32,000 nt of DNA from an uncultured Actinomycetes bacterium (GTDB lineage Bacteria > Actinomycetota > Actinomycetes > S36-B12 > CAIYMF01): the NCBI GenBank assembly GCA_963843975.1, contig CAWJMG010000003.1, positions 570,001 to 602,000 of the forward strand, given 5' to 3'. The notes below the pieces were generated by a model, which saw nothing but the letters and a program-made list of their open reading frames with translations, was not told the origin of the DNA and ran no database searches. The translations under genes were made by a program, and so were the position numbers. Positions 3,264-29,416 of this stretch are shown here, one piece after another. How positions within the stretch are numbered: the first letter of the stretch is position 1; every line of letters starts with the position of its first letter.

Positions 3264-3293
3264 GCTCAAGGCGGGGGTCTGGGGCGCCGATGG
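3264..3293 (+). promoter_or_regulatory. sigma-28 (FliA/WhiG)-like promoter candidate S1: GCTCAAG-N15-GCCGATGG
   Basis: Read directly in the aroE/Roadblock intergenic region, ending 52 nt before ATG 3345. Same motif and spacing as sites at 6213, 8040, 13608 and 18292. Confidence 0.5.
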
Positions 3294-3344: not shown

Positions 3345-3923
3345 ATGTCCGGCCAGCCATCCTCCACCGGTCGCGCAGCCCGTCTCGACCGTGCCCTCGC
3401 CGACCTGCTCGCGCAGGCCCCTGAGCTCGAGGCGGCTGCGGTCGTGTCCTTCGACGGCCTCGCCATGGCCTCCCGCCTGCCCTCGGGCATGGACGAGGAC
3501 CGCGTGGCGGCGATGAGCGCCGCGCTCCTCAGCCTGGGCGAGAAGGCGGCCCAGGGCCTCGGCCGGGGCGACCTGTCCCAGGTCTACGTCGAGGGCGAGT
3601 CCGGCACCGTCTTCCTGATCTCCGCCGACGACGAGGCCGTCCTGGTCGCCGTCGCCGCAGCCGGCGCCAAGGCGGGCCTCATGCTGTACGAGGTCCGCCG
3701 CTCGGCCGCCGCCGTGGGCGAGGTGCTCCGCGAGGCCGCGCCCGTCGTCGAGGCCCCGAACGTCGACGACCAGGCGCTCGCCGACGCCGAGGCGGCGTAC
3801 GAGGCCTACCGCGCGTCCCAGGCGGTGCCCGCCGCCGCCCCGGTCCCGGAGGTCGTGGCCCCGGCCGCGTCCTGGGACCCGTACGCCACGGCTCCCGTGG
3901 CGTCCGCCCCGTCCTGGTCCTGA
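3345..3923 (+). CDS. Roadblock/LC7 (MglB-like) domain protein with Ala/Pro-rich tail
   Basis: 192 aa. Residues 1-125 (...LEAAAVVSFDGLAMASRLPSGMDEDRVAAMSAALLSLGEKAA...GTVFLISADDEAVLVAVA...) fit the Roadblock/LC7 fold family. The C-terminal third is low complexity. Confidence 0.8.
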   Translation: MSGQPSSTGRAARLDRALADLLAQAPELEAAAVVSFDGLAMASRLPSGMDEDRVAAMSAALLSLGEKAAQGLGRGDLSQVYVEGESGTVFLISADDEAVLVAVAAAGAKAGLMLYEVRRSAAAVGEVLREAAPVVEAPNVDDQALADAEAAYEAYRASQAVPAAAPVPEVVAPAASWDPYATAPVASAPSWS

Positions 3924-3957: not shown

Positions 3958-5263
3958 GTGAACCTCGAGGGCTCCCTCGACGCGTTCGGACTTCCCGACG
4001 TCCTGACGCTGCTCGCCGCCACCGGCAAGTCCGGTGGCCTGCTGCTGCGCCGTGACACGGACGGGGAGGACGGTCGGGTCGACCGGCTCGAGGGCGCGGT
4101 GTGGTTCCGCGAGGGCCGTGTCTGCGGCGCCACGTCGGACCGCTCCCGCGCGTCCCTCGTACGCCGGGTGGTCGGCTCCGGCGCCGTGGACGACAACGCC
4201 CTGCGCCAGGCCGTCGCCCGTGCGGTGTCCGCCGGCGGGGGAGTGGCCCGTGCGCTGCTCGAGTCCGGTGCCGTCGACCCCGACCTGCTCCGCCAGGCGG
4301 CGGACGACCAGACCGTGGACGCCGTGTTCGACCTGCTCCGCTGGTCCGACGGGGAGTTCGCCTTCGACCCAGCAGCCTCCGACCCGGACGACGTAGGGCT
4401 CGCCATCGAGCACGAGCGGCTGCTGGCCGAGGCCCGGGCCCGGGTCGAGGCATGGGGCGCGCTCGTCGTCGTCATCCCTACGCGCGACGCCGTGCTGACG
4501 GTGCCGACCGTGCTCGCGCAGGACCCCGAGGTCTCCCGGGACGAGTGGGCGCTGCTGTCCCTCGTGGACGGCCACCGCCGCGTGCGCGACCTTGTCGAGC
4601 TGCACCGGGGCCGGCGAGTTCGCCGTCACCACGATCCTGGCGCGCCTCGTCCAGCGCGGCCTCCTGCACGTGAAGGACGCCTCCGCGCCCGACCACGTGA
4701 CGGTCGTCGAGCGCCGACTCGGCATGCTCGCCTCCGTCGAGGGTGCGGCGCCGACCGCCCCGTCCGACGAGCCGGCGCAGCCGGTCCAGGCGGTCGAGGA
4801 GCCCACGGCAGGGCCTGGTGCGCTCGGGATGTCGGCCGCTGCAGCACTCGCCGCAGCCCGTGCGGCACAAGGGCTTCCGCAGCCCGGCGTCCCCGGGTCG
4901 GCAGGCCGTGCACCGCGGCACGAGGTCGTCCCGCCCCGCCCGGAGCCGTTCCTGCCCGGACGGCGCCCCGAGCACCCGGAACCCGCACCCGAGCGCGTTG
5001 CCGGGGCGTCCGCGTTCGCCGCCGCTCCTGCTCCTGCCCACGGGATGCCGTCCGCGCCCGCGGCCCCGCACCCGACCACGTCGTCCGGCTACGCGCCCAT
5101 GGCCGAGAGCTCGGGGTCGGTGGACGGCGCCACGGCGCGCTCGCTCGCCGCGCCCGCGCCGCTGGCGGCCCCCGACCCGCGCCACGACGCCACGATCGAG
5201 CGCGATCCGTCCGTCAACCGCAGCCTGCTGCTGCGCCTCATCGCCGGTGTCAGGGGGCTCTGA
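3958..5263 (+). pseudogene. PATAN/DUF4388 domain protein, reading frame broken by +1 shift near 4612
   Basis: GAAGGAGG RBS precedes GTG 3958. The N-terminus MNLEGSLDAFGLPDVLTLLAATGKSGGLLL is the DUF4388/PATAN signature. Frame 1 loses sense after ...DLVELHRG, and the protein continues sensibly in frame 2 (GEFAVTTILARLVQRGLLHV..., wHTH-like) to TGA 5261-5263. One extra C in CGGGGCCGGC explains the shift. Confidence 0.75.
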
Positions 5264-5838
5264 TGGCAGCGCGCAGGCATCGCCGCCAGGGAGGGCAGGC
5301 CGTCAAGATCGTGGTCACCGGCCCCTTCGCGGCCGGCAAGACCACGCTCATCCGGACGATCAGCGAGATCACCGTGCTCTCGACCGAGCGCGGGATCACG
5401 GACGAGACCCGGAGCCGCAAGGCCGAGACGACGGTGGCCATGGACTTCGGCCGCATCACGATCGATCGCGACCTCGTGCTCTACCTGTTCGGCACGCCCG
5501 GCCAGGAGCGGTTCGACTTCATGTGGGAGATCCTCGGCGAGGGGATGCTCGGCTACGTCCTGCTCGTGGACGCCGCGCGCCCGGAGACCCTGGACGAGGC
5601 GGCCGGGATCCTCGCGGCCTTCCGCCGCATGGCTCACGTGCCGTTCGTCGTCGCGCTGAACCGCACGACCGAGCTCGACCCTCGGGCCGAGGACCGGGTC
5701 CGCGAGGCCCTGGAGCTCTCGCCGTCGACGCCGGTCGTCCCGTGCGACGCGACCGACAAGGACTCCGTGAAGGCCGTCCTGCTCGCCCTGCTGTACAGCG
5801 TGCTGGACGACATCGAGGCCACCGCGGCCCACGCCTAG
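5263..5838 (+). CDS. small Ras-like ATP/GTP-binding protein (MglA/CvnD family)
   Basis: 191 aa. P-loop GPFAAGKTT, switch II FGTPGQERF, and ALNR in place of NKxD. The TGATG overlap with the PATAN gene suggests translational coupling. Confidence 0.85.
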   Translation: MAARRHRRQGGQAVKIVVTGPFAAGKTTLIRTISEITVLSTERGITDETRSRKAETTVAMDFGRITIDRDLVLYLFGTPGQERFDFMWEILGEGMLGYVLLVDAARPETLDEAAGILAAFRRMAHVPFVVALNRTTELDPRAEDRVREALELSPSTPVVPCDATDKDSVKAVLLALLYSVLDDIEATAAHA

Positions 5839-6212: not shown

Positions 6213-6242
6213 GCTACAGACGAGGCGCGGCTGTGCCGAACA
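6213..6242 (+). promoter_or_regulatory. sigma-28-like promoter candidate S2 (diverged): GCTACAG-N15-GCCGAACA
   Basis: Lies in the intergenic region upstream of pilB with the same spacing as S1 and S3. Weaker match in both halves. Confidence 0.3.
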
Positions 6243-6274: not shown

Positions 6275-7984
6275 ATGGCACCGGCGCACGCCGGGCGGTC
6301 CGATGCGGGAGGGCGCGACGTGAAGCAGCTGGGGGACATCCTCCTCGAGGGCGGTCTGGTCACCCACGACCAGCTCGCGGTCGCCGTCGACGAGCAGAAC
6401 CGGCTCGGCCGCAGCCTGGGCCGTGTCCTCGTCGACCAGGGCGTGCTCACGGAGTCCCAGCTCGTCGCCTCGCTCGCCGCCCAGATCGGCATGCGGTTCG
6501 TCGACCTCAGCGACATCCAGATCGACGGCTCGGCCCTCGGCCGCGTGCCGGGCCACGTCGCCCGGCGCCACACCGCGATCCCGATCGGCTACGAGGAGGG
6601 CAAGCTCCTCGTCGCGATGGCCGACCCGGCCAACGTCTTCGCGATCGACGACATCCGCTCCGCGGCCGGGATCGACGTCAAGCCCGTCGTCGCCACGCGC
6701 AACGACGTGGCCGCGGCCATCGACCGGTTCTACCGCGCCGGCGACGAGCTCAACGACCTCACCTCCGAGCTGGACACGGGGGAGGACGAGGAGGACCTGT
6801 CCAAGGTCAAGGAGATCACCGAGGACGCCCCGATCGTCCGCTACGTGAACCTCCTGATCACCCAGGCCATCCAGGACCGTGCGTCCGACATCCACCTCGA
6901 GCCGACCGAGCACGACCTCCGCGTGCGCTACCGCATCGACGGCGTGCTGCACGAGGTCATGCGCTCTCCTCGGGCGATCCAGTCCGGCGTCATCAGCCGC
7001 CTGAAGATCATGGCCGACATCAACATCGCCGAGCGCCGCATCCCGCAGGACGGCCGACTGTCGGTTGCCGCGCACGGCAAGAAGGTCGACCTCCGCGTCG
7101 CGACCCTCCCCACCGTCTGGGGCGAGAAGGTCGTCATGCGTATCCTCGACAACTCAACGGCGCGAATGGATCTCGCCGATCTCGGCTTCAGCCCGCACAA
7201 CTTCGGCATCTTCGAGAAGTCGTACGTGAAGCCGTACGGGATGATCCTGGTCACCGGTCCGACCGGTTCGGGTAAGTCGACCACGCTGTACGCCACGCTC
7301 AACGTGGTGAACAAGCCCGAGGTCAACATCATCACGGTCGAGGACCCGGTCGAGTACCGCCTCCCCGGCGTCAACCAGGTGCAGGTCAACAACAAGGCCG
7401 GCCTCAACTTCGCCGCAGCCCTGCGCTCGATCCTGCGCTCGGACCCCGACATCGTCCTCATCGGTGAGATCCGCGACCACGAGACGGCGCAGATCGCCGT
7501 CGAGGCCTCGCTCACCGGTCACCTGGTGCTCTCGACCCTGCACACCAACGACGCCCCCAGCGCGATCGTGCGACTGACCGAGATGGGCATCGAGCCCTTC
7601 CTGGTCGGGTCCGCCGTCGACGCGGTGCTCGCCCAGCGTCTCGCCCGCAGGCTCTGCAGCAAGTGCAAGGAGCCGTACGTGCCGGACGCCGAGCAGCTCG
7701 AGCACATCCGGTTCAAGCCGTACCCGGGGGACCCGGAGCCCAACTTCTTCCGGCCGGTGGGCTGCGCGAGCTGCGCCAAGACCGGCTACAAGGGCCGCGT
7801 CGCGATCCACGAGGTCATGGCGATCAGCGACGAGATCGAGCGCCTCACCGTCGAGCGCGCGTCGTCCACGCGGATCATGGCCGTCGCTATCGAGCAGGGC
7901 ATGCGCACGCTCCGCGAGGACGGTCTGCTCAAGGCCTCCCAGGGCATCACCACGATCGACGAGGTCTTCCGCGTCGTCGCCTGA
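6275..7984 (+). CDS. pilB: type IV pilus assembly ATPase PilB (GspE family)
   Basis: 569 aa. N-terminal MshEN/T2SSE_N repeats (LLEGGLVTHDQLAVAVDEQ.., LVDQGVLTESQLVASLAAQ). Walker A GPTGSGKST, the Asp/His boxes, and a tetracysteine motif CSKC...CASC. Both the ATG 6275 and the alternative GTG 6320 start have a GGAGGG-type RBS. Confidence 0.92.
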   Translation: MAPAHAGRSDAGGRDVKQLGDILLEGGLVTHDQLAVAVDEQNRLGRSLGRVLVDQGVLTESQLVASLAAQIGMRFVDLSDIQIDGSALGRVPGHVARRHTAIPIGYEEGKLLVAMADPANVFAIDDIRSAAGIDVKPVVATRNDVAAAIDRFYRAGDELNDLTSELDTGEDEEDLSKVKEITEDAPIVRYVNLLITQAIQDRASDIHLEPTEHDLRVRYRIDGVLHEVMRSPRAIQSGVISRLKIMADINIAERRIPQDGRLSVAAHGKKVDLRVATLPTVWGEKVVMRILDNSTARMDLADLGFSPHNFGIFEKSYVKPYGMILVTGPTGSGKSTTLYATLNVVNKPEVNIITVEDPVEYRLPGVNQVQVNNKAGLNFAAALRSILRSDPDIVLIGEIRDHETAQIAVEASLTGHLVLSTLHTNDAPSAIVRLTEMGIEPFLVGSAVDAVLAQRLARRLCSKCKEPYVPDAEQLEHIRFKPYPGDPEPNFFRPVGCASCAKTGYKGRVAIHEVMAISDEIERLTVERASSTRIMAVAIEQGMRTLREDGLLKASQGITTIDEVFRVVA

Positions 7985-8039: not shown

Positions 8040-8069
8040 GCTCAAGCAAGGCTCTCGGGCGGCCGATGG
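8040..8069 (+). promoter_or_regulatory. sigma-28-like promoter candidate S3: GCTCAAG-N15-GCCGATGG
   Basis: Both half-sites are identical to S1. About 50 nt upstream of the pilT start. Confidence 0.5.
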
Positions 8070-8118
8070 TCAGCAAGGACGCCGGCACGCGAGGTGCCGG
8101 CCCGAACGAGGAGTGGCC

Positions 8119-9498
8119 GTGGAGTCCATGCCGTACGCCGGACAGACGTCCGTGCAGCCGGGCGCCTCGCCGTACCCGTCGGGCGCGATCCCCGAGGCTG
8201 CGGCACCCGTGGCCGCCCCGGTGGGATACCCGGCGCCCGCCCTGGCCACGGCCACGGTTGCGCCCGTCGCGCCGATGCCGATGCCTGCCGCCCCGGCCGC
8301 GGCCCCGCCGGTCCTGTCGGCACCTGAGCCCGCGCCGGCCGGCGTGGTGAACAACCCGCTGAACGACCACGGCACGGGCGTCGCCCAGGTGGTCCCCACG
8401 CGCCAGTCCACCGAGCAGACCATCCGCGAGGACGACTTCAGCCTCGTCGACGCCCTGCTGACCATGCTCGACCGAGGTGCCTCCGACCTCCACCTGACCT
8501 CGGGCGCACGCCCGACCATCCGTGTCAGCGGATCGCTCGTGGGCCTCGAGGAGTTCGAGGTCCTCACGCCTCCGGTGCTGCAGCGCGTCATCTACTCCGT
8601 CCTCACCCAGGGCCAGCGCCTGAAGTTCGAGGAGGAGCTCGAGCTCGACTTCGCGTACTCGCTGCCCGGGCGCGCCCGCTTCCGCGTGAACGTCTACAAG
8701 CAGCGCGACAGCCTCGGCGCGGCCTTCCGCATCATCCCGTTCGAGATCAAGAGCCTCGAGAGCCTCGGCGTCCCGCCGTCGGTCGCGAACTTCGCCAGCC
8801 TGCCGCGCGGCTTCGTGCTCGTCACGGGACCCACCGGCTCGGGCAAGTCGACCACGCTCGCCGCGCTGGTCGATCTGGCGAACCGCACGCGGCACGACCA
8901 CATCATGACCGTCGAGGACCCGATCGAGTTCCTCCACCGGCACAAGAGCTGCATCATCAACCAGCGCGAGGTCGGCGAGGACACCTGGTCGTTCGCCAAC
9001 GCCCTCAAGCACGTGCTGCGCCAGGACCCCGACATCATCCTGGTCGGCGAGATGCGCGACCTCGAGACGATCTCGGTCGCGCTCACCGCCGCCGAGACCG
9101 GTCACCTCGTCTTCGCGACGCTGCACACGCAGGATGCCGCGCAGACCATCGACCGCGTCATCGACGTCTTCCCGCCGCACCAGCAGCAGCAGGTCCGCCA
9201 GCAGCTGGCGATGTCGCTCCAGGGCGTCGTCTGCCAGACGCTGTGCAAGACGGCCGACGGCCACGGTCGCGTCGTCGCGACCGAGGTCCTCGTCGTCACC
9301 CCCGCCGTCCGGAACCTGATCCGCGAGGGCAAGACCCACCAGATCTACTCGGTCATGCAGGCGGGTGCGCAGTTCGGCATGCACACCCTCGACCAGCACC
9401 TCGCCGAGCTCGTCCGCACCCGCCGGGTGACGTACGAGCACGGTGTGGAGAAGTGCCACCACATCGAGGACTTCAACCGGCTCGTCGGCCGGGCCTGA
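8119..9498 (+). CDS. pilT: twitching-motility retraction ATPase PilT with ~100-aa Pro/Ala-rich N-terminal extension
   Basis: The core begins at FSLVDALLTMLDRGASDLHL. Walker A GPTGSGKST, GEMRDLETI and ATLHT motifs are present. GAGGAG sits 5 nt before GTG 8119 (alternative ATG 8128). The upstream part of track ORF 7663.. overlaps pilB and is not used. Confidence 0.9.
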   Translation: MESMPYAGQTSVQPGASPYPSGAIPEAAAPVAAPVGYPAPALATATVAPVAPMPMPAAPAAAPPVLSAPEPAPAGVVNNPLNDHGTGVAQVVPTRQSTEQTIREDDFSLVDALLTMLDRGASDLHLTSGARPTIRVSGSLVGLEEFEVLTPPVLQRVIYSVLTQGQRLKFEEELELDFAYSLPGRARFRVNVYKQRDSLGAAFRIIPFEIKSLESLGVPPSVANFASLPRGFVLVTGPTGSGKSTTLAALVDLANRTRHDHIMTVEDPIEFLHRHKSCIINQREVGEDTWSFANALKHVLRQDPDIILVGEMRDLETISVALTAAETGHLVFATLHTQDAAQTIDRVIDVFPPHQQQQVRQQLAMSLQGVVCQTLCKTADGHGRVVATEVLVVTPAVRNLIREGKTHQIYSVMQAGAQFGMHTLDQHLAELVRTRRVTYEHGVEKCHHIEDFNRLVGRA

Positions 9499-9521: not shown

Positions 9522-10757
9522 ATGGCAGCCACAGCGACCTTCCAGTACGCGGTTCGTGACCGCAGCGGCAAGGTAGTCACCGGAAAGATCGAGGCGGACT
9601 CGCCCGCCCAGGTCGCGTCCAAGCTCAAGAGCATGGGCTACGCCCCGCTCAAGATCAGCTCGGTCGAGAAGGGTGGCCTGAAGACCGACATCACCCTGCC
9701 GACCCTGGGCAACAAGGTGAAGCTGAAGGAGATCGCGGTCTTCAGCCGGCAGTTCGCCACGATGATCAACTCGGGCCTGTCGATGCTGCGCTCGCTCTCG
9801 ATCCTCGAGGAGCAGCAGCCGAACAAGAAGTTCGCCACCGTCATCGGCGAGATCCGCGGCGAGGTCGAGAGCGGCTCTGCGCTGTCGACCTCGATGGCCA
9901 AGCACCCCGACATCTTCCAGCCGCTCATGATCAACATGATCAAGGCCGGCGAGGTCGGCGGCTTCCTGGACGCGGTGCTGGTGCAGATCGCCGACAACTA
10001 CGAGGCCGAGGTCAAGCTCCGCGGCAAGGTGAAGTCGGCCATGACCTACCCGGTCGCGGTCCTCGTCATGGCCGTGCTGCTCACGATCGGCATGCTGCTG
10101 TTCGTCGTCCCGACGTTCGCGAAGCTGTTCGAGGACCTCGGCGGCGAGCTGCCGGCGCCGACGCAGATGCTGGTGAACCTCTCCAACTTCCTCAAGGTCG
10201 GGATCATCCCGATCGTGATCCTGTCGATCGTGTGGTTCATCGTCTGGATCCGCATCAAGAACACCGACCGCGTCCGCAACTTCGTCGACCCGATCAAGCT
10301 GAAGGTGCCCATCTTCGGCGGCATGTTCCAGAAGATCGCCCTCGCCCGCTTCTGCCGCAACCTCGGAACGATGCTGCAGTCCGGCGTCCCGATCCTGCAG
10401 TCGCTCGACATCGTCGCGGACACCTCGGGCAACAAGGTCATCACGCATGCTGTGCACGACATCGAGGAGAGCGTGCGCCGGGGCGAGAGTCTCACCCAGC
10501 CGCTGTCCCAGCACGCGGTCTTCCCGGCCATGGTCGTGCAGATGCTGGCGGTCGGCGAGGACACCGGTGCCCTGGACTCGATGCTCGCGAAGATCGCCGA
10601 CTTCTACGACGCCGAGGTCGAGGCGACCACCGAGCAGATGACCGCGCTCATCGAGCCGCTCATGATCGCCGTGCTGGGCGGCATCGTCGGGTCGATGATC
10701 ATCGCCCTGTACATGCCCATCTTCAAGATCTTCGACCTCATCGGCGGCAGCAAGTAG
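9522..10757 (+). CDS. pilC: type IV pilus platform protein PilC (GspF family)
   Basis: 411 aa starting at ATG 9522 after a GAGGAGAGG RBS. Two T2SSF repeats (FSRQFATMINSGLSMLRSL.., FCRNLGTMLQSGVPILQSL..) and three TM segments. Confidence 0.92.
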   Translation: MAATATFQYAVRDRSGKVVTGKIEADSPAQVASKLKSMGYAPLKISSVEKGGLKTDITLPTLGNKVKLKEIAVFSRQFATMINSGLSMLRSLSILEEQQPNKKFATVIGEIRGEVESGSALSTSMAKHPDIFQPLMINMIKAGEVGGFLDAVLVQIADNYEAEVKLRGKVKSAMTYPVAVLVMAVLLTIGMLLFVVPTFAKLFEDLGGELPAPTQMLVNLSNFLKVGIIPIVILSIVWFIVWIRIKNTDRVRNFVDPIKLKVPIFGGMFQKIALARFCRNLGTMLQSGVPILQSLDIVADTSGNKVITHAVHDIEESVRRGESLTQPLSQHAVFPAMVVQMLAVGEDTGALDSMLAKIADFYDAEVEATTEQMTALIEPLMIAVLGGIVGSMIIALYMPIFKIFDLIGGSK

Positions 10758-10779
10758 CCGCAGGGGTGATCAGCACGGT

Positions 10780-10803
10780 CGGGCGGGCCCTCGGGCCCGC
10801 CCG
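10780..10803 (+). terminator. GC-rich hairpin after pilC
   Basis: GGGCGGGCC-cucg-GGCCCGCCC, a 9-bp perfect stem, 24 nt after the pilC stop. There is no clear U-tract, as is common in high-GC actinobacteria. Confidence 0.5.
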
Positions 10804-10919
10804 TCCTGCGTCCACGGGCCGGTGGCGCTGCTCGGGATTGATCCCCCGACCGGGTGATGTGGGCGGAAAGTTCTCGGGAACCTTAAGGACCGGGGTCCGG
10901 AGCGACCGACACCGTCTCT

Positions 10920-11057
10920 GTCATGGAAATCCATGACCGCCGGACACCAGAACGGGCACACCCACCGCGAGGTGGGGCCGCAGAGCCAGGGGACCCACGT
11001 GGTCAGCCCAGCAGCCTCGGTCAGGCCGGACGGCGGTCGCTTCGCAGGAGGAACACA
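10920..11057 (+). promoter_or_regulatory. structured 5' leader of pilin 1; candidate c-di-GMP-I (GEMM-I)-like riboswitch
   Basis: P1 is GACCGCCG (10935-42) paired with CGGCGGTC (11031-38). GGGCACA follows at 10954-60. P2 is CCCACC-GCGA-GGTGGG at 10961-76 (GNRA loop). GCCGCAGAGCC follows at 10977-87. P3 is GGGGACC-cacgt-GGTCagCCC at 10989-11009. The RBS AGGAGG is at 11046-51. Copy 2 shows compensatory changes. Confidence 0.45.
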
Positions 11058-11480
11058 ATGTTCTCTCGCATCCGCACGTCGATCTCCGACAAGGACTCGG
11101 GCTTCACCCTCATCGAGCTCCTCGTCGTCATGATCATCATCGGCATCCTTGCCGCCATCGCGATCCCGACCTTCCTCAACCAGCGCAAGAACGGCTACCG
11201 CTCCGCGCTGAAGAGCGACCTCAAGAACGCCGCCACCGCGCTCGAGTCGGCAGCCGTCGACAAGCAGGGCGACTTCACCCTCGGCGGCACCGTCGCCGCC
11301 AACACGGTGCTCCCGGGCGCCACCACGGTCGAGTTCACCCCGACCGCCGGCGACACCGTCACCGTCAAGACCGTCACCTCGACGACCTACTGCCTGCAGG
11401 CCACGAACGACTCCCTCGGCGTCGCCGAGCCGTGGAAGTTCGACAAGACCTCTGGCGCACCGATCGCCGGCACCTGCTGA
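11058..11480 (+). CDS. pilA: type IV major pilin paralog 1 (prepilin)
   Basis: 140 aa. Leader MFSRIRTSISDKDSG, then cleavage/methylation motif G|FTLIELLVVMIIIGILAAIAIP (F+1, E+5). C-terminal Cys pair (TYC...AGTC-stop). AGGAGG RBS. Confidence 0.92.
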   Translation: MFSRIRTSISDKDSGFTLIELLVVMIIIGILAAIAIPTFLNQRKNGYRSALKSDLKNAATALESAAVDKQGDFTLGGTVAANTVLPGATTVEFTPTAGDTVTVKTVTSTTYCLQATNDSLGVAEPWKFDKTSGAPIAGTC

Positions 11481-11494
11481 CCCCAGCACCCCGG

Positions 11495-11524
11495 GACGGG
11501 GCGGACCGACCGGTCCGCCCCGTC
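11495..11524 (+). terminator. hairpin after pilin 1
   Basis: GACGGGGCGGAC-cgaccg-GTCCGCCCCGTC, a 12-bp perfect stem. Confidence 0.55.
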
Positions 11525-11569
11525 TCGCTGCGCCGAGAGGGTGACGCTCCGTGATCGTGGACGTCGAAG

Positions 11570-11598
11570 GCTCAAGCCCGCCTCACAGGCGTCGAAGA
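11570..11598 (+). promoter_or_regulatory. sigma-28-like promoter candidate S4: GCTCAAG-N14-GTCGAAGA (weak -10)
   Basis: The -35-like half is exact, the -10-like half matches GCCGATAA at 5/8. It ends 7 nt before the leader palindrome at 11606. Confidence 0.3.
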
Positions 11599-11605
11599 AG
11601 CATCT

Positions 11606-11747
11606 GTCATGGAAATCCATGACCGCCAGAGACCAGAACGGGCACACCCGCCGCGAGGCGGGGTCGCAAAGCCAGGGGACCCTCCGGGTCGGCCCAGCTA
11701 CCTCGGTCCATCCGGTCGACGGCGGTCGTCCTTCAGGAGGAACACCA
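11606..11747 (+). promoter_or_regulatory. structured 5' leader of pilin 2; candidate c-di-GMP-I (GEMM-I)-like riboswitch
   Basis: Same architecture as 10920-11057. P2 is CCCGCC-GCGA-GGCGGG (an A:U pair replaced by G:C). The core segment GTCGCAAAGCC is at 11663-73. P1 is GACCGCC paired with GGCGGTC at 11621-27 and 11721-27. Confidence 0.45.
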
Positions 11748-12170
11748 ATGTTCTCTCGTATCCGCACGTCGATCTCGGACAAGGACTCGGGCTTCACGCT
11801 CATCGAGCTCCTCGTCGTCATGATCATCATCGGCATCCTTGCCGCCATCGCGATCCCGACCTTCCTCAACCAGCGCAAGAACGGCTACCGCTCGGCCCTC
11901 AAGGCCGACCTGAAGAACGCCGCCACCGCGCTCGAGTCGGCCGCTGTCGACAAGCAGGGTGACTTCACCCTCGGTGGCACCCTGGCCGCGAACACGGTCA
12001 TCCCCGCTGCCGGTGTCGAGTTCACCGCCACCAGCGGCAACACCGTGACCGTCAAGTCCGTCACGGCGACGACCTACTGCATCGAGGCCACCAACGCCTC
12101 GCTCGGTGCGGCTGAGCCGTGGAAGTTCAACAAGGCGACCGGTGCGCCGGTTGCGGGCGCCTGCCCGTGA
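11748..12170 (+). CDS. pilA: type IV major pilin paralog 2
   Basis: 140 aa. The N-terminal 60 aa are nearly identical to paralog 1, with the same G|FTLIELLVV motif. Carries the TYC...AGAC Cys pair. Confidence 0.92.
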   Translation: MFSRIRTSISDKDSGFTLIELLVVMIIIGILAAIAIPTFLNQRKNGYRSALKADLKNAATALESAAVDKQGDFTLGGTLAANTVIPAAGVEFTATSGNTVTVKSVTATTYCIEATNASLGAAEPWKFNKATGAPVAGACP

Positions 12171-12206
12171 TGAACTGACCGACGGCCTGGCCGTCGGAGC
12201 ACGAAG

Positions 12207-12236
12207 CGAGGGGCGGGCCTGCGGGCCCGCCCCTCG
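12207..12236 (+). terminator. hairpin after pilin 2 (preceded by a second small hairpin 12179-12197)
   Basis: CGAGGGGCGGGCC-tgcg-GGCCCGCCCCTCG, a 13-bp perfect stem, followed by GCGCGTTTCGCC. Confidence 0.55.
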
Positions 12237-12301
12237 CGCGTTTCGCCTAGGCCCTCCGGGTGAGATCCAGGCGTGAGGCAGACCCGTACGGGTCACACGC
12301 T

Positions 12302-12330
12302 CTCAAGCGTCCGGATGTCGGGCCGATCCC
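12302..12330 (+). promoter_or_regulatory. sigma-28-like promoter candidate S5: TCTCAAG-N14-GCCGATCC
   Basis: Intergenic, upstream of pilin 3. The -10-like half matches GCCGATAA at 6/8. Confidence 0.4.
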
Positions 12331-12467
12331 CGAAGGGTCATCGAATTTCATGTCCGTCGCGATCGACGCCCACCCAGCACCACCTTCATCCGGCTGGGCG
12401 CCCGGTGGGTCACCCGTGCGCGGGAGCCTGCTGGTCGAGCGTCGACGGTCGTCCTAGGAGGAACGTC

Positions 12468-12887
12468 ATGTTCTCTCGTATCCGCACGTCGATCGAGGAG
12501 GAGGACTCGGGCTTCACGCTCATCGAGCTCCTCGTCGTCATGATCATCATCGGCATCCTCGCCGCGATCGCCATCCCGACCTTCCTCAACCAGAGGAAGA
12601 ACGGCCACCGCTCGGCACTCAAGAGCGACCTGAAGAACGCCGCCACCGCACTCGAGTCGGCGGCGGTCGACAAGTTCGGCGACTTCACCCTCGGCGGCAC
12701 CCTGGCGGCCAACTCGATCCTGCCAGCCGCAGGAGTCGAGTTCGTGGCCACCACCGGGGACACCATCAGGGTGATCTCGTCCAGCTCGACCACGTACTGC
12801 CTCCAGGGCGTCAACGACGTCCTGACAGCGGCCGAGACCTGGAAGTTCGACAAGGCCGTCGGCGCCCCGGTCGCCGGCACCTGCTGA
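12468..12887 (+). CDS. pilA: type IV major pilin paralog 3
   Basis: 139 aa. MFSRIRTSIEEEDSG|FTLIELLVV... with TYC...AGTC. TAGGAGG RBS. Confidence 0.92.
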   Translation: MFSRIRTSIEEEDSGFTLIELLVVMIIIGILAAIAIPTFLNQRKNGHRSALKSDLKNAATALESAAVDKFGDFTLGGTLAANSILPAAGVEFVATTGDTIRVISSSSTTYCLQGVNDVLTAAETWKFDKAVGAPVAGTC

Positions 12888-12901
12888 ACGCACCAGCACC
12901 T

Positions 12902-12949
12902 CGAAGGGCCCGGCTGGGCGACGGAGACGTCGACCGGTCGGGCCCTTCG
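12902..12949 (+). terminator. compound hairpin after pilin 3
   Basis: The outer stem is CGAAGGGCCCG/CGGGCCCTTCG (11 bp). It encloses an inner hairpin CGACG-gaga-CGTCG. Confidence 0.4.
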
Positions 12950-13013
12950 CGCTGCCGGGGCAGATGTCATCCGACTGGCGGACCCTGAACGGCTCAGCAG
13001 AGACGAACCTCCG

Positions 13014-13042
13014 GCTCAAGTCCCGCTCCACAGCACCGATAA
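13014..13042 (+). promoter_or_regulatory. sigma-28-like promoter candidate S6: GCTCAAG-N14-ACCGATAA
   Basis: Best -10 match in the window (7/8 to GCCGATAA). About 50 nt upstream of pilin 4 ATG 13096. Confidence 0.5.
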
Positions 13043-13095
13043 CAGGACCTGAGAGAGCTGCTCGGTGCGGCTCGACACCGAAAGGATCCGCCGCC

Positions 13096-13515
13096 ATGCT
13101 CACGCGACTTCGCACCTCGATCCACGACAAGGACTCGGGCTTCACCCTCATCGAGCTCCTCGTCGTCATGATCATCATCGGCATCCTTGCCGCGATCGCG
13201 ATCCCGACCTTCCTCAACCAGCGCAAGAACGGCTACCGCTCGTCGCTGAAGGCCGACCTGAAGAACGCTGCCACCGGCCTCGAGTCCGCTGCTGTCGACA
13301 AGCAGGGCGACTTCACCCTCGGCGGCACCCTCGCCGCGAACACCGTCCTCCCGGCCGGCACGGTCGAGTTCACGCCCACCACGGGCAACACCGTCACCGT
13401 GAAGACCGTCACGGCCACCACGTACTGCATCGAGGCCAGCAACGCCTCGCTCGGCGCGGGCGAGCCGTGGAAGTTCGACAAGGCCACCGGTGCTCCCATC
13501 GCGGGTGCCTGCTGA
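13096..13515 (+). CDS. pilA: type IV major pilin paralog 4
   Basis: 139 aa. MLTRLRTSIHDKDSG|FTLIELLVV... with TYC...AGAC. The short leader has no riboswitch-like structure. Confidence 0.92.
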   Translation: MLTRLRTSIHDKDSGFTLIELLVVMIIIGILAAIAIPTFLNQRKNGYRSSLKADLKNAATGLESAAVDKQGDFTLGGTLAANTVLPAGTVEFTPTTGNTVTVKTVTATTYCIEASNASLGAGEPWKFDKATGAPIAGAC

Positions 13516-17405: not shown

Positions 17406-18212
17406 GTGCTGACTGGATCCACCGAGACCGACACCGCCCTGCTCACGGCCGTGTGCGGCTTCCTGGGGCTGTTCATCGGCTCCTTCCTCAACGTGGTGAT
17501 CTACCGCGTCCCCGCAGGCCTCTCGGTGGTGTCCCCGCGCTCGCGCTGCCCCCGCTGCGAGACCGAGATCAAGGCGTACGACAACATCCCGGTCGTCTCG
17601 TGGCTGGTCCTGCGCGGGAAGTGCCGCAGCTGCGGTGAGCCCATCTCGGTGCGCTACCCCCTCGTGGAGCTCGCCACCGGCGTCCTGTTCGCGCTCACGG
17701 CGTGGTGGCTTGGGCCGGTCTGGGAGCTGCCCGCGTTCCTGTACCTCGCCGCGATCGCCGTGGCCCTGTCGATGATCGACTTCGACGTCAAGCGGCTCCC
17801 CGATGCGATCGTGCTGCCGTCGTACGGCGTGGCGCTCGTGCTCCTTCTGGTGCCCTCCTTCCTCGACTCCCGCTGGGACGACCTGCTGCGCGGCGTGCTC
17901 GCGGGGCTGGCGCTGTTCGCCTTCTACTTCCTCCTGCTCATCGTCTACCCGGCGGGCATGGGCTTCGGCGACGTCAAGCTCGGGGGAGTGATCGGCCTCT
18001 ATCTCGGCTGGGTGTCCTGGGGGCTCGTCGTCGTCGGCACCTTCGCCGGGTTCGTCATCGGCGCCGTCGTGGGGCTCGTCCTGATCGTTACCCGCCGGGG
18101 CGGCCGCAAGTCCAAGGTGCCGTTCGGGCCCTTCATGTTCATGGGCGTGTACGTCGCCTTCGCCGTCGGCCAGCCGATCGTGGACTGGTACGTCGGCAGC
18201 CTCGGGCTGTAG
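17406..18212 (+). CDS. pilD: prepilin peptidase / N-methyltransferase (A24 family) PilD
   Basis: 268 aa. N-terminal CPRC...CRSC zinc motif, polytopic TM profile, and catalytic-Asp motif GMGFGDVKLGG. TAGGGT lies 6 nt upstream of GTG 17406, a leaderless-type arrangement. Confidence 0.9.
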   Translation: MLTGSTETDTALLTAVCGFLGLFIGSFLNVVIYRVPAGLSVVSPRSRCPRCETEIKAYDNIPVVSWLVLRGKCRSCGEPISVRYPLVELATGVLFALTAWWLGPVWELPAFLYLAAIAVALSMIDFDVKRLPDAIVLPSYGVALVLLLVPSFLDSRWDDLLRGVLAGLALFAFYFLLLIVYPAGMGFGDVKLGGVIGLYLGWVSWGLVVVGTFAGFVIGAVVGLVLIVTRRGGRKSKVPFGPFMFMGVYVAFAVGQPIVDWYVGSLGL

Positions 18213-18291: not shown

Positions 18292-18321
18292 GCTCAAGGC
18301 GAGCCCCACCACCGCCGAAAC
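18292..18321 (+). promoter_or_regulatory. sigma-28-like promoter candidate S8: GCTCAAG-N15-GCCGAAAC
   Basis: Intergenic, about 40 nt upstream of the pilM start. Confidence 0.45.
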
Positions 18322-19417: not shown

Positions 19418-20214
19418 TGGGACTTCTCAACCGTGGATCGGCCGTCGTCGAGAGCGAGCCGCAGGCCGCTCCCGTCGTGGACGCGCCCTCCATCCCGACG
19501 AGCGCTGCCGCGTTCCCGCGCGTCAACCTCATGCCCGACGAGATCGCGGAGGAGGCCCGGATCCGTCGGGCCAAGCTCGTGCTCGCGGGTGCGGCCGTCG
19601 TGTCCGTCGGCGCCGTCGGCGCCCTGTTCATGATGGCCGGCGCCGAGGTCAGCTCCGCCCAGGAGTCGCTCGACCAGGCCGCCGCCCGGGGCACCGTGCT
19701 CTCTGCCGAGGTCGCGCAGTACTCCGACGTCCCTGCGGCCCGTGCCGACCTCGCCAGCGCCCAGGCGCAGCAGTACCTGGCGATGGGCGGCGAGGTGCGC
19801 TGGTCGTTCCTGCTCAACAACCTCTCGCTCACCCTCCCGCGCGGCACCTCGCTCACGGAGTTCAAGGGCCTGATCAACGGGCTCGCCCCGACGCCGGGCG
19901 CGGCAGGTGCCGCAACCGGCGCGACCGCTGCCGGCGGACAGGCGAGCATCCTCGGCAAGCCCGCGATCGGCGAGATCCAGTACGCCGGCGAGGCGCGCGG
20001 CTACACCGACGTCGCCGCCCTGCTCGACGTCCTCGCCAAGCAGAAGACGCTGGTCGACCCGTACCCGGGCACCGTGCAGTCGGCCGAGGCCGTCACGACC
20101 GGCGTCTCCGCCGGCACGACGGCGTCCCCCGGCAAGGGCTACACCTTCACGGCGACGTCCTCGGTGAGCGACAAGTCCCTCTCCCACCGCTACGACATCA
20201 AGGACGGTGGCTGA
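19414..20214 (+). CDS. pilN: PilN-like bitopic pilus alignment protein
   Basis: 266 aa. The motif RVNLMPDEIAEEARIRRAK, a single TM helix, then a coiled-coil segment. Start overlaps the pilM stop. Confidence 0.75.
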   Translation: MMGLLNRGSAVVESEPQAAPVVDAPSIPTSAAAFPRVNLMPDEIAEEARIRRAKLVLAGAAVVSVGAVGALFMMAGAEVSSAQESLDQAAARGTVLSAEVAQYSDVPAARADLASAQAQQYLAMGGEVRWSFLLNNLSLTLPRGTSLTEFKGLINGLAPTPGAAGAATGATAAGGQASILGKPAIGEIQYAGEARGYTDVAALLDVLAKQKTLVDPYPGTVQSAEAVTTGVSAGTTASPGKGYTFTATSSVSDKSLSHRYDIKDGG

Positions 20215-20215
20215 C

Positions 20216-20917
20216 ATGTCCTTCGGACGCGCCGCTCGCTGGTACATCGGTGCCGGCCTCTCCGCCGTGCTGGTCCTCGTCGCCGGCTGGTTCCTCCTGG
20301 TCGCGCCGCAGCGCGCGTCGGCCGAGGAGATCCAGGCGTCGGTGCAGGCCCAGGAGCAGACGAACCGGGCCACCGAGGCCCAGATCGCCACGCTCAAGGC
20401 CCAGTTCAAGGACCTCCCGGAGCTGCAGAAGCAGACGTCGGCGATCCGCACCAAGATCCCGACCACGCCGGGCATGGCCTCGCTGCTGCGCCAGCTCTCG
20501 ACCCTCGCCAAGACCTCGGGCGTCTCGCTCGTCTCGGTCACCCCGTCGCAGCCTGCTCCGATGGTGGCGCCGGGTTCGACCTCCGGCTCCGCCGCGCTCA
20601 GCACGCCGGGCCAGGTCAACGAGATCCCCGTCGGCATCGGCGTCACCGGCCGCTTCGCGAACGTGAAGCTGTTCCTCTCGGGACTCGAGAAGATGCAGCG
20701 CGCGATCCTCGTGACCGGCCTCAGCATCACGCGTGACGAGACCCCGAGCAGCACGACCCCGGGCAACCAGCTCAAGGTCGACCTGACGAGCAAGGTCTTC
20801 ATCGCGAACAAGGGCACTGCGCCCGCTCCCGCGAGCTCCACCGCCACCGGCACCACGGACGGCGCAGCCCCCGCCGGAGGTGCGGTCGGAACCTCGACCG
20901 GCACCGCGGCCAACTGA
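20216..20917 (+). CDS. pilO: PilO-like pilus alignment protein
   Basis: About 233 aa. TM helix (IGAGLSAVLVLVAGWFLLV), a coiled coil (EEIQASVQAQEQTNRATEAQIATLKAQ), then a ferredoxin-like C-terminal part. The track ORF starts at GTG 20207, but ATG 20216 has better AAGGA spacing. Confidence 0.75.
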   Translation: MSFGRAARWYIGAGLSAVLVLVAGWFLLVAPQRASAEEIQASVQAQEQTNRATEAQIATLKAQFKDLPELQKQTSAIRTKIPTTPGMASLLRQLSTLAKTSGVSLVSVTPSQPAPMVAPGSTSGSAALSTPGQVNEIPVGIGVTGRFANVKLFLSGLEKMQRAILVTGLSITRDETPSSTTPGNQLKVDLTSKVFIANKGTAPAPASSTATGTTDGAAPAGGAVGTSTGTAAN

Positions 20918-28682: not shown

Positions 28683-28756
28683 TGCCCCGAGTGGGATTCG
28701 AACCCACACTGGATGGTGTTTGAGACCACTGCCTCTGCCGGTTGGGCTATCGGGGC
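28683..28756 (-). tRNA. 74-nt class I tRNA, anticodon read as CAA (isotype uncertain)
   Basis: The reverse complement is GCCCCGA-TA-GCCC-AACCGGCA-GAGGC-A-GTGGT-CTCAAAC-ACCAT-CCAGT-GTGGG-TTCGAAT-CCCAC-TCGGGGC-A. It has a 7-bp acceptor stem, G18G19, a canonical T-arm and A73. No CCA is encoded. Confidence 0.85.
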
Positions 28757-28813: not shown

Positions 28814-29416
28814 GTGACAGCGAACGAGAGCGCTCTGCGGATCGTGGTGGCCGAGGATGAGGCGCTCATCCGCCTCGACCTCGTGGAGATGCTGCGCGAG
28901 GAGGGCTACGAGGTCGTCGGCGAGGCCGGGGACGGCGAGAACGCCGTACGCCTGGCCGAGGAGCTGCGCCCCGACGTCGTGATGCTCGACGTGAAGATGC
29001 CGGTGCTCGACGGCATCAGCGCGGCCGAGCGGATCGCCACCGCACGGATCGCCCCGGTCGTGATGCTCACGGCGTTCGCCCAGCGCGAGCTCGTGGAGCG
29101 GGCGCGCGACGCGGGCGCGATGGCCTACCTCGTGAAGCCGTTCACGCAGGGCGACCTCGTGCCCGCCATCGAGCTCGCCGTCAGCCGGTACGCCGAGATC
29201 GTGACCCTCGAGGCAGAGATCGCCGACCTCGGCGAGCGGTTCGAGACCCGAAAGCGCGTGGAACGCGCCAAGTCGTTGCTGCAACAGGCGTACAAGCTCT
29301 CGGAGACCGACGCGTTCCGGTGGCTGCAGAAGTCCGCGATGGACCGCCGCCTCACGATGCGCGAGGTGGCCGACGTGGTCATCCGCGAGGTCGGGGCCAC
29401 CGGCAGCGAAGGGTGA
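28814..29416 (+). CDS. pdtaR: ANTAR-domain response regulator (PdtaR-like)
   Basis: 200 aa. REC domain (RIVVAEDEALIRLDLVEML...DVVMLDVKMP...YLVKPF) followed by ANTAR (KRVERAKSLLQQAYKLSETDAFRWLQKSAMDRRLTMREVA). TAGGGT lies 6 nt before GTG 28814. Confidence 0.9.
   Translation: MTANESALRIVVAEDEALIRLDLVEMLREEGYEVVGEAGDGENAVRLAEELRPDVVMLDVKMPVLDGISAAERIATARIAPVVMLTAFAQRELVERARDAGAMAYLVKPFTQGDLVPAIELAVSRYAEIVTLEAEIADLGERFETRKRVERAKSLLQQAYKLSETDAFRWLQKSAMDRRLTMREVADVVIREVGATGSEG

Follow-up and report, generated by a model that had tools for sequence, protein, structure and literature searches.

Candidate class I cyclic-di-GMP riboswitches in the leaders of a tandem pair of type IV pilin genes from an uncultured Actinomycetes bacterium

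The stretch of DNA analysed here, 32,000 nucleotides long and referred to as the window (assembly GCA_963843975.1, contig CAWJMG010000003.1, positions 570,001 to 602,000 of the forward strand), comes from an uncultured Actinomycetes bacterium and carries a cluster of type IV pilus genes set between aroE and aroC. The cluster includes four tandem pilin paralogues (start codons at 11058, 11748, 12468 and 13096), each with its own leader upstream and a GC-rich hairpin downstream. The leaders of the first two paralogues (10920-11057 and 11606-11747) are, with a probability which we put at about 0.85, class I cyclic-di-GMP (c-di-GMP) riboswitches of the type named GEMM-I, each leader being the 5' untranslated region (5' UTR) of a separate pilin transcription unit with such a riboswitch inside it. 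The GEMM-I class has been known since 2007-2008, and the locus adds no new kind of element to it; what has been little described is the setting in which this RNA class occurs here.

The leaders and their class assignment

A first-pass annotation of the window had described two structured leaders aligning along their whole length and resembling the GEMM-I core. The end-to-end alignment was confirmed and the features described were found in place: each leader opens with a conserved GUCAUGGAAAUCCAUGAC hairpin and extends as far as an AGGAGG Shine-Dalgarno sequence, and the 82-nucleotide aptamer cores (10943-11024 and 11629-11710) share 92% identity and show no insertions or deletions. The features are given below, with pocket positions in the numbering of the Vibrio cholerae Vc2 aptamer; RF01051 (c-di-GMP-I) and RF03167 (c-di-GMP-I-GGC) are Rfam models, and R1 is a covariance model derived from the aptamers of copies 1 and 2.

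10920-10937 (+): H0, 5'-terminal hairpin of leader 1, GUCAUGG-AAAU-CCAUGAC, from predicted folds and kept in the closest relatives
10935-10942 (+): 5' strand of the outer helix P0, copy 1, GACCGCCG, complementary to 11031-11038, conserved and covarying in relatives
10943-11024 (+): GEMM-I aptamer copy 1 (A48G/U90A), RF03167 37.9 bits, R1 104.4 bits (copy 1 having helped to build R1)
10955, 10982, 10983, 11013 and 11015: G20, A47, G48, A90 and C92 of copy 1
11031-11038 (+): 3' strand of P0, copy 1, CGGCGGUC
11046-11051 (+): Shine-Dalgarno sequence of pilin 1, AGGAGG, 6 nucleotides before the ATG at 11058
11058-11480 (+): pilin paralogue 1, 140 amino acids, 14-residue leader peptide, GFTLIELL, Pfam N_methyl E = 4.7e-10
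11606-11623 (+): H0, 5'-terminal hairpin of leader 2, from predicted folds and alignment with relatives
11621-11627 (+): 5' strand of P0, copy 2, GACCGCC
11629-11710 (+): GEMM-I aptamer copy 2 (canonical), RF01051 47.1 bits, RF03167 48.2 bits
11641, 11668, 11669, 11699 and 11701: G20, A47, A48, U90 and C92 of copy 2
11701-11704: CCUC tract of copy 2, followed at 11705-11708 by GGUC, the proximal 3' strand of P1
11714-11717 (+): distal GGUC of copy 2, alternative partner for the P1 5' strand GACC (11631-11634), adjoining the P0 3' strand
11721-11727 (+): 3' strand of P0, copy 2, GGCGGUC
11735-11740 (+): Shine-Dalgarno sequence of pilin 2, AGGAGG, with the pyrimidine tract GUCCUUC just before it
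11748-12170 (+): pilin paralogue 2, 140 amino acids

Both copies contain the GGGCACA segment, and it is followed by a hairpin of 6 base pairs whose GCGA loop is of the GNRA type in each. Its strands are CCCACC and GGTGGG in copy 1, CCCGCC and GGCGGG in copy 2; the A:U to G:C double change, which the annotation had offered as covariation, is real, although a single change between recent paralogues is weak evidence when taken alone. The linker (GCCGCAGAGCC in copy 1, GTCGCAAAGCC in copy 2, with the core CGCA(G/A)AGCC across the two) had been regarded as single-stranded, and while its sequence was as described it is unpaired only in part, since G21-C46 and C22-G45 form pairs and AGCC opens the second hairpin. 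In the latter, GGGGACC-loop-GGTC-(AG/GG)-CCC, the stems are conserved and the 5-nucleotide loops differ, in agreement with the earlier description; C44 is seen in GGGG-U/C-C-GC, and the G of the AG/GG bulge is conserved. The GC content of the elements is 0.72-0.75.

The closing helix, which had been named P1 and given 8 base pairs, has this length in copy 1, where it joins GACCGCCG (10935-10942) to CGGCGGTC (11031-11038) and ends 7 nucleotides before AGGAGG, but only 7 base pairs in copy 2 (11621-11627 with 11721-11727), A11628 standing opposite C11720. It is not the canonical P1, which is the short junction-flanking helix ACC/GGU (copy 1) or GACC/GGUC (copy 2), but an extra outer helix, here called P0, which is real, conserved and covarying. 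The 5' strand of P0 immediately precedes the aptamer and is close to the start of the mRNA; its partner lies 18-32 nucleotides before the start codon, its own end being 18-20 nucleotides from that codon. The last three nucleotides of H0 in leader 1, a hairpin that begins at the predicted transcription start, overlap P0.

The whole window was scanned against Rfam at gathering thresholds, and the only matches at this level were one tRNA and c-di-GMP-I (RF01051) at 11631-11705, in copy 2; the latter match spans the full model (1-87) and scores 47.1 bits where the gathering score is 35, at E = 2.3e-06 for the whole window. The proposed resemblance to the GEMM-I core was upheld by this match and by the covariation among relatives, which supports every helix. 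Copy 1 is sub-threshold, so that by these models copy 2 qualifies as a class member by curated threshold and copy 1 by homology only. The other class considered in the annotation, c-di-GMP-II (RF01786), gave no match at E <= 10 within 10760-13110. In E-value mode RF03167 was the best model of the clan (copy 2, 48.2 bits, E = 1e-09; copy 1, 37.9 bits, E = 9.5e-07, the best clan score for that copy). By alignment to the Rfam consensus, G20, A47 and C92, together with C44 and the bulged G83, are present in both copies; since the first three are canonical, the signature is that of c-di-GMP and not of 3'3'-cyclic GMP-AMP (3'3'-cGAMP) or the GGC variant, and the aptamers are predicted to bind c-di-GMP. 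The folding energy was ordinary for the composition (z = -0.5 for copy 1 and -1.1 for copy 2), and support for the leaders therefore comes from covariance models and relatives, not from stability.

Relatives were collected by a PilC-anchored scan with one genome per species, which gave 80 loci, almost all from metagenome-assembled Actinomycetota (Nanopelagicales, Frankiales/Mycobacteriales, Sporichthyaceae and Acidothermaceae), the best relative having 96% PilC identity. R1 found 58 strong matches outside noise, in about 50 of the 80 loci, several of which have two. All 58 lie on the plus (coding) strand shortly after pilC, and wherever enough downstream sequence was available (54 of 54 matches) a pilin gene with a leader peptide of 12-14 residues follows. 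Rfam at gathering thresholds gave a match at the same position in each of 20 related loci scanned, 17 of them passing RF01051 (18 matches, two in locus L001, 37.4-57.2 bits) and three passing RF03167, yet these three have A47. After pilC of the cultured relatives Actinotalea, Pengzhenrongella and Kineococcus (L065, L078, L079) no aptamer match was found with R1.

Pairing is kept in the homologous leaders. When pairs were counted over the 58 leaders in an alignment that is fitted to the model, and hence biased towards the structure, 96% of cells were paired and double changes occurred at 16 of 21 pairs; no shuffle among 500 did as well, and pairing in slid controls was 17-45%. P1 is paired in 87.5-94.6% of cells. 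An independent treatment of 18 full-length leaders with MAFFT and RNAalifold recovered both hairpins and the outer helix. Across the 58 diverged leaders the ligand-contacting nucleotides are nearly invariant and the helices covary. From these comparisons the element is judged to be a bona fide, widespread GEMM-I lineage tied to the major pilin.

P0 is a conserved extension that encloses the aptamer and the expression platform and lies outside the Rfam model. Its variants in relatives include GACCGCC/GGCGGUC, GAGCCGC/GCGGCUC, GAGCCAC/GUGGCUC, GAGCUGC/GCAGCUC, GAGUCGU/GCGACUC and AGCAGC/GCUGCU, in a comparison that took the best helix per leader and so carries some selection bias. The 3' strand of P0 lies 6-17 nucleotides after the aptamer in close relatives, and distant relatives insert one or two hairpins. 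A hairpin overlapping the P0 3' strand in the long platforms was dropped, as the strand on its 5' side shows no covariation with the changes in P0.

With R1 and filters off, no aptamer was found in the window beyond those of leaders 1 and 2; leaders 3 and 4 gave none by Rfam at E <= 10 either. Leader 3 (12337-12467) keeps H0, the Shine-Dalgarno context and P0 (GUCCGUCG/CGACGGUC, with a compensatory C:G to U:A change). Its interior matches GEMM-I in no search, and this derived form is conserved in the closest relative (L001:8800-8948).

Predicted promoters, output and direction of the proposed switch

In the sigma-28 consensus, a -35 element of the form CTCA or T(A/C)AA is separated by 16-17 nucleotides from the -10 element, GCCGA(A/T)nn, in which CGA is invariant (PMC12871210). 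Motifs of this type were found before the pilin genes and elsewhere in the cluster.

3266-3291 (+): sigma-28-type motif before the Roadblock gene
6215-6240 (+): sigma-28-type motif before pilB, TACA variant
8042-8067 (+): sigma-28-type motif before pilT
10883-10912 (+): possible sigma-28-type promoter of pilin 1, TTAA/TAAG 17-18 nucleotides before ACCGACAC
11571-11598 (+): sigma-28 (WhiG/FliA)-type promoter of pilin 2, CTCA-N16-GTCGAAGA
12302-12329 and 13015-13042 (+): sigma-28-type motifs before pilins 3 and 4
18294-18319 (+): sigma-28-type motif before pilM

Leaders 2-4 match the consensus exactly. The promoter of leader 1, whose spacer is 1-2 nucleotides longer than the consensus and which is not matched by the strict pattern, is the weakest of the four; its N18 arrangement recurs in the orthologous leader of L001. 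The motif stands at a fixed upstream distance in 55 of the 58 related leaders, as a -35 CTCA/TCAA/TAAA, a 16-nucleotide spacer and a -10 nnCGA(A/T)nn, in agreement with the published WhiG/FliA consensus for Actinomycetota (PMC12871210, PMC8325347). The pattern TCAAG-N16/17-CGAW is observed six times in the window, against 0.40 expected, always on the plus strand and never on the minus, and the six sites precede the Roadblock gene, pilT, pilins 2-4 and pilM. The whole pilus cluster looks like a sigma-28 regulon, as far as can be predicted from these motifs. No sigma-70 promoter was found between 10700 and 13200. Because the -10 element ends 7 nucleotides before GUCA, the transcript probably begins at the first base of each leader as annotated, that is, at the G of GUCA, with predicted starts at about 10920 and 11606. 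In relatives P0 starts within a few nucleotides of the predicted 5' end.

No intrinsic terminator was found between 10700 and 13200, so that control is probably exerted at translation. Translational platforms are those towards which Actinomycetota tend (PMC12452182), and a translational output is considered the most likely.

The conserved alternatives around P1 offer a possible view of the mechanism. In 18 leaders with short platforms the P1 5' strand pairs with the proximal 3' strand in 87.5% of cells, and in the same leaders the distal alternative partner is paired in 79.6% of cells, with two covarying pairs; the minimum-free-energy fold of the copy 2 leader uses the distal partner. The 3' junction CCUCGG is conserved within the clade, and its CCUC, which contains C92, is complementary to GGAGG. 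In the relative L002 a full relay can be read: CCUC, GAGGGA, UCCCU and then the Shine-Dalgarno sequence AGGGAG. With c-di-GMP bound, P1 and the CCUC tract (C92-C93-U-C) would be held in the aptamer, stacked on P0. In the ligand-free RNA the P1 5' strand would instead pair with the distal copy of the P1 3' strand beside P0, and this alternative pairing would free CCUC, which is complementary to the GGAGG of the Shine-Dalgarno sequence. By this scheme c-di-GMP would raise pilin translation. Such an ON direction is favoured by the release of CCUC in the ligand-free fold, by the L002 relay and by the near-intact MshEN motifs of PilB, and we lean towards it, although it is the least secure of the inferred points.

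Several results weigh against confidence in this scheme. When the aptamer fold was enforced in 54 leaders, the accessibility of the Shine-Dalgarno sequence changed by 0.004 on average (7 up, 4 down), and with no systematic change the direction cannot be read from thermodynamics. The Shine-Dalgarno sequences in the window are predicted to be paired with the first codons in both aptamer states. The platforms of distant relatives are longer and different in detail, and the relay is not demonstrably conserved in them. Control by an RsiG-type anti-sigma factor, if present, would shut off transcription at high c-di-GMP, which by analogy would fit an OFF switch better (PMC8325347).

An OFF switch with the same aptamer and ligand, in which c-di-GMP would lower pilin expression, is tenable but on balance unlikely. 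GGGGAC (11675-11680), in the 5' strand of the second hairpin, is complementary to GUCCUU (11728-11733), and these could pair in the ligand-free RNA and leave the Shine-Dalgarno sequence free, with GUCCU re-sequestering it in the bound state. The sigma-28/WhiG-type promoters of the pilins are in line with such a direction, for in Rubrobacter c-di-GMP arms RsiG against WhiG-dependent pilus genes (PMC8325347), and GEMM-I OFF switches such as Cd1 are known (PMC9262584). The -35 CTCA/TCAA, however, resembles the WhiG1 consensus, whose members are not RsiG-controlled (PMC12871210), PilB has an MshEN domain, which in other bacteria couples high c-di-GMP to pilus extension, and the conserved CCUC freed in the alternative fold points to ON; the thermodynamic modelling favours neither direction.

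A further pairing was considered for the platform. The P0 3' strand (11712-11728) can pair with the region of codons 5-11 (11760-11779) through 12 base pairs and one bulge, likewise in copy 1, and the resulting helix encloses the Shine-Dalgarno sequence and the start codon. The pairing is strong in the window, but it was rejected as a conserved mechanism, since it exceeds shuffles in the closest relatives only (z of -1.2 to -2.4) and is absent elsewhere (mean z 0.06).

The variant first copy and the predicted ligand

The two copies differ in the ligand pocket: the linker of copy 1 is AGA (G10983) with A90 (A11013), that of copy 2 AAA with U90. In Vc2, A48 and U90 form a Hoogsteen pair (PMC11705072), and A48 is among the key nucleotides of ligand recognition (PMC3764141, PMC11705072). 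Both partners of this pair are changed in copy 1, and since A48G and U90A alter them together, copy 1 (10947-11020) stays below every Rfam gathering score, in the whole window as well as in 10900-11070 alone. These points tell against the c-di-GMP riboswitch reading for copy 1.

It is rather unlikely, in our estimate, that the copies are non-equivalent, with copy 1 having an altered affinity or ligand, or not binding, and the paralogues responding differently. The sub-threshold score and the doubly changed Hoogsteen pair (PMC11705072) are what such a difference would lead one to expect, as is the AGA of copy 1 in a linker that is "virtually always AAA" in GEMM RNAs, 2 of 322 sequences deviating (PMC1950547). 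Among relatives, AGA is also found in the leaders of the first copies in L001 (7416-7497) and L035 (7383-7464) and in L003 (8669-8751), and a metagenome scan for the A48G linker found it on 16 contigs (L081-L096), in pilin leaders and in contexts of unrelated genes, with a tandem pair in L087. This recurrence indicates a maintained variant, not random decay, and is in keeping with a difference between the copies. On the other hand, copy 1 keeps G20, A47, A49, C92 and all helices, and in L001, the closest relative, the orthologue of this copy remains above the RF01051 threshold (37.4 bits, with 35 required).

The residue at position 90 in the AGA variants, by reading of the alignment, is C in about ten and U in about six, which suggests that the pocket is preserved and is compatible with a G-C+ Hoogsteen pair in place of A-U. 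A G-C+ Hoogsteen pair is isosteric with A-U. The AGA form is probably a functional minority form of the class, judging from these alignments. The combination G48/A90 of the window copy 1 is unusual, being common only to L001, and does not fit the isosteric rule; the competence of copy 1 is to this extent uncertain.

Position 20 bears on the identity of the ligand. Two pilin-linked aptamers, L018:1517-1599 and L036:7392-7466, in metagenome-assembled genomes of Nocardioidaceae and Acidothermaceae, have A at this position. A20 is the change which shifts Geobacter GEMM-I RNAs towards 3'3'-cGAMP. The sensing of another cyclic dinucleotide by the window aptamers, be it the 3'3'-cGAMP sensed by GEMM-Ib of Geobacter or whatever the GGC variant class binds, is very improbable, even with this cGAMP-type signature in relatives and RF03167 as the top clan model in E-value mode: both window copies have G20 and A47 (GCAAAG / GCAGAG), the consensus of RF03167 has G47 (GCGAAG), its scores of 48.2 and 37.9 bits are below the gathering score of 59, and copy 2 passes RF01051. 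Filing the elements under RF03167 was ruled out by A47 and the sub-threshold scores, the three relatives that pass this model also having A47, and membership in the cGAMP-sensing GEMM-Ib group, which requires A20, by the G20 of both window copies.

That the leaders are non-sensing structured 5' UTRs, stabilising the mRNA or binding a protein, with a coincidental or vestigial likeness to GEMM-I, is scarcely credible, for although a 5'-terminal hairpin and an outer helix sequestering the 5' end are classic mRNA-stabilising features, leader 3 keeps H0 and P0 without an aptamer (so that the frame can persist sensor-free) and the folding energies are unremarkable, the covariance-model E-values are very low, the RF01051 match spans the full model, and ligand-contacting nucleotides are near-invariant across 58 leaders while the helices covary.

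The pilus cluster and known systems

The other genes of the cluster that were assigned are as follows.

3345-3923: Roadblock/LC7 protein
3958-5838: DUF4388 / GTPase-like protein with a C-terminal small-GTPase-like domain (ATP_bind_1)
6275-7984: PilB with an MshEN domain
8107-9498: PilT-like ATPase
9531-10757: PilC
From 13683: minor pilins
17406-18212: prepilin peptidase
From 18362: PilM
20207-20917: PilO-like protein

The MshEN domain of PilB (E = 1.1e-22, residues about 17-70) contains two 24-residue c-di-GMP motifs, QLGDILLEGGLVTHDQLAVAVDEQ and SLGRVLVDQGVLTESQLVASLAAQ, which are near the consensus (PMC11731258) and have the canonical separation of 5 residues; the first position of each departs from R/K/L. 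Together with the sigma-28-type promoters, this domain makes the surroundings of the leaders fit a c-di-GMP-controlled pilus system.

The pilin paralogues of the window form a graded series, copy 2 being canonical, copy 1 carrying A48G/U90A, copy 3 retaining the frame without the aptamer and copy 4 having none. Many related loci (L007, L062, L014, L022) have 2-5 tandem pilin paralogues, each with its own leader, and the riboswitch on some only; L007 has five paralogues and one detected aptamer.

Compared with the Vc2 aptamer and RF01051, the window elements share the three-way junction, the short P1, the second hairpin with a bulged G, and the first hairpin with its stem of 2 and 6 base pairs, 3-nucleotide internal loop and GNRA loop, as well as the pocket residues G20, A47 and C92, the C44/G83 pair and a location in the 5' UTR of a surface or motility gene. 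They differ in having a GCGA (GYRA-type) loop without the tetraloop receptor, which places them in the receptor-less subtype (PMC1950547), a very short second hairpin, a high GC content, the clade-conserved CCUCGG 3' junction, an aptamer nested in P0 that reaches to about 18 nucleotides before the start codon and, in copy 1, the sub-threshold A48G/U90A. RF03167 belongs to the same clan (CL00126) and is the top model in E-value mode, and differs in its consensus G47 as set out above.

In Clostridioides difficile, also a monoderm, a c-di-GMP-II leader (Cdi2_4) precedes the major type IV pilin gene pilA1 and is given as an ON switch (Bordeleau et al. 2015, as cited in PMC6916266). Cdi2_4 belongs, however, to an unrelated aptamer class and acts by transcription antitermination, whereas the window leaders have neither an RF01786 match nor a terminator. 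The GEMM-Ib RNA of Geobacter pilM, an ON switch (PMC10118264, PMC9262584), has the GEMM-I fold upstream of type IV pilus genes, but it has A20 and senses 3'3'-cGAMP, in contrast to the G20 of the window, and it controls the assembly genes pilMNOPQ through a terminator and not a pilin gene. With the RsiG-(c-di-GMP)-WhiG system of Rubrobacter (PMC8325347) the locus shares actinobacterial type IV pilus genes, sigma-28-type promoters and, by prediction, c-di-GMP control; there the switch is a protein acting on transcription initiation, whereas the window has a predicted RNA sensor in the 5' UTR.

As to novelty, the first-pass annotation had known of no example in a high-GC actinobacterium or on duplicated pilin genes. 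A literature search for GEMM-I in Actinobacteria or before actinobacterial pilins likewise found no description, but the class and its association with pilus genes are known, the latter noted in the original description of 2007 (PMC1950547), and a public model detects the elements. Features of moderate interest are the enclosing helix, the pairing of sigma-28-type promoters with an MshEN PilB, and the graded sensor series on four paralogues. Published c-di-GMP control of actinobacterial type IV pili is the RsiG-WhiG protein switch, and the leaders indicate an RNA sensor of c-di-GMP on the major pilin, with the same type of promoter, in many uncultured freshwater and soil Actinomycetota. Knowledge of the riboswitch class itself is unaltered. 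For biochemistry the locus offers a GEMM-I subtype that is compact and GC-rich and whose outer helix is conserved, and a near-identical natural pair of aptamers differing at the A48-U90 pocket pair which is convenient for studies of affinity tuning.

It is tempting to speculate, though we think it improbable, that in this clade of mostly uncultured actinobacteria three layers of c-di-GMP control converge on the pilus (the sigma-28-type regulon over the whole cluster, the GEMM-I nested in a clade-specific P0 around the entire 5' UTR, and the MshEN extension ATPase) and that non-equivalent sensors choose the pilin paralogue. If this were true, the level or identity of the second messenger would pick the paralogue, a riboswitch-programmed switching of pilus composition.

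Two further observations concern neighbouring genes. The Roadblock/LC7 and DUF4388 pair lies just upstream of pilB, after a sigma-28-type motif, and calls to mind a polarity module of the MglB/MglA type. The gene at 28814-29416 encodes a response regulator whose output domain is of the RNA-binding ANTAR type; it stands beside a minus-strand tRNA gene (28683-28756), with a periplasmic-binding-protein/ABC transporter locus downstream of it, and has no relation to the riboswitches.

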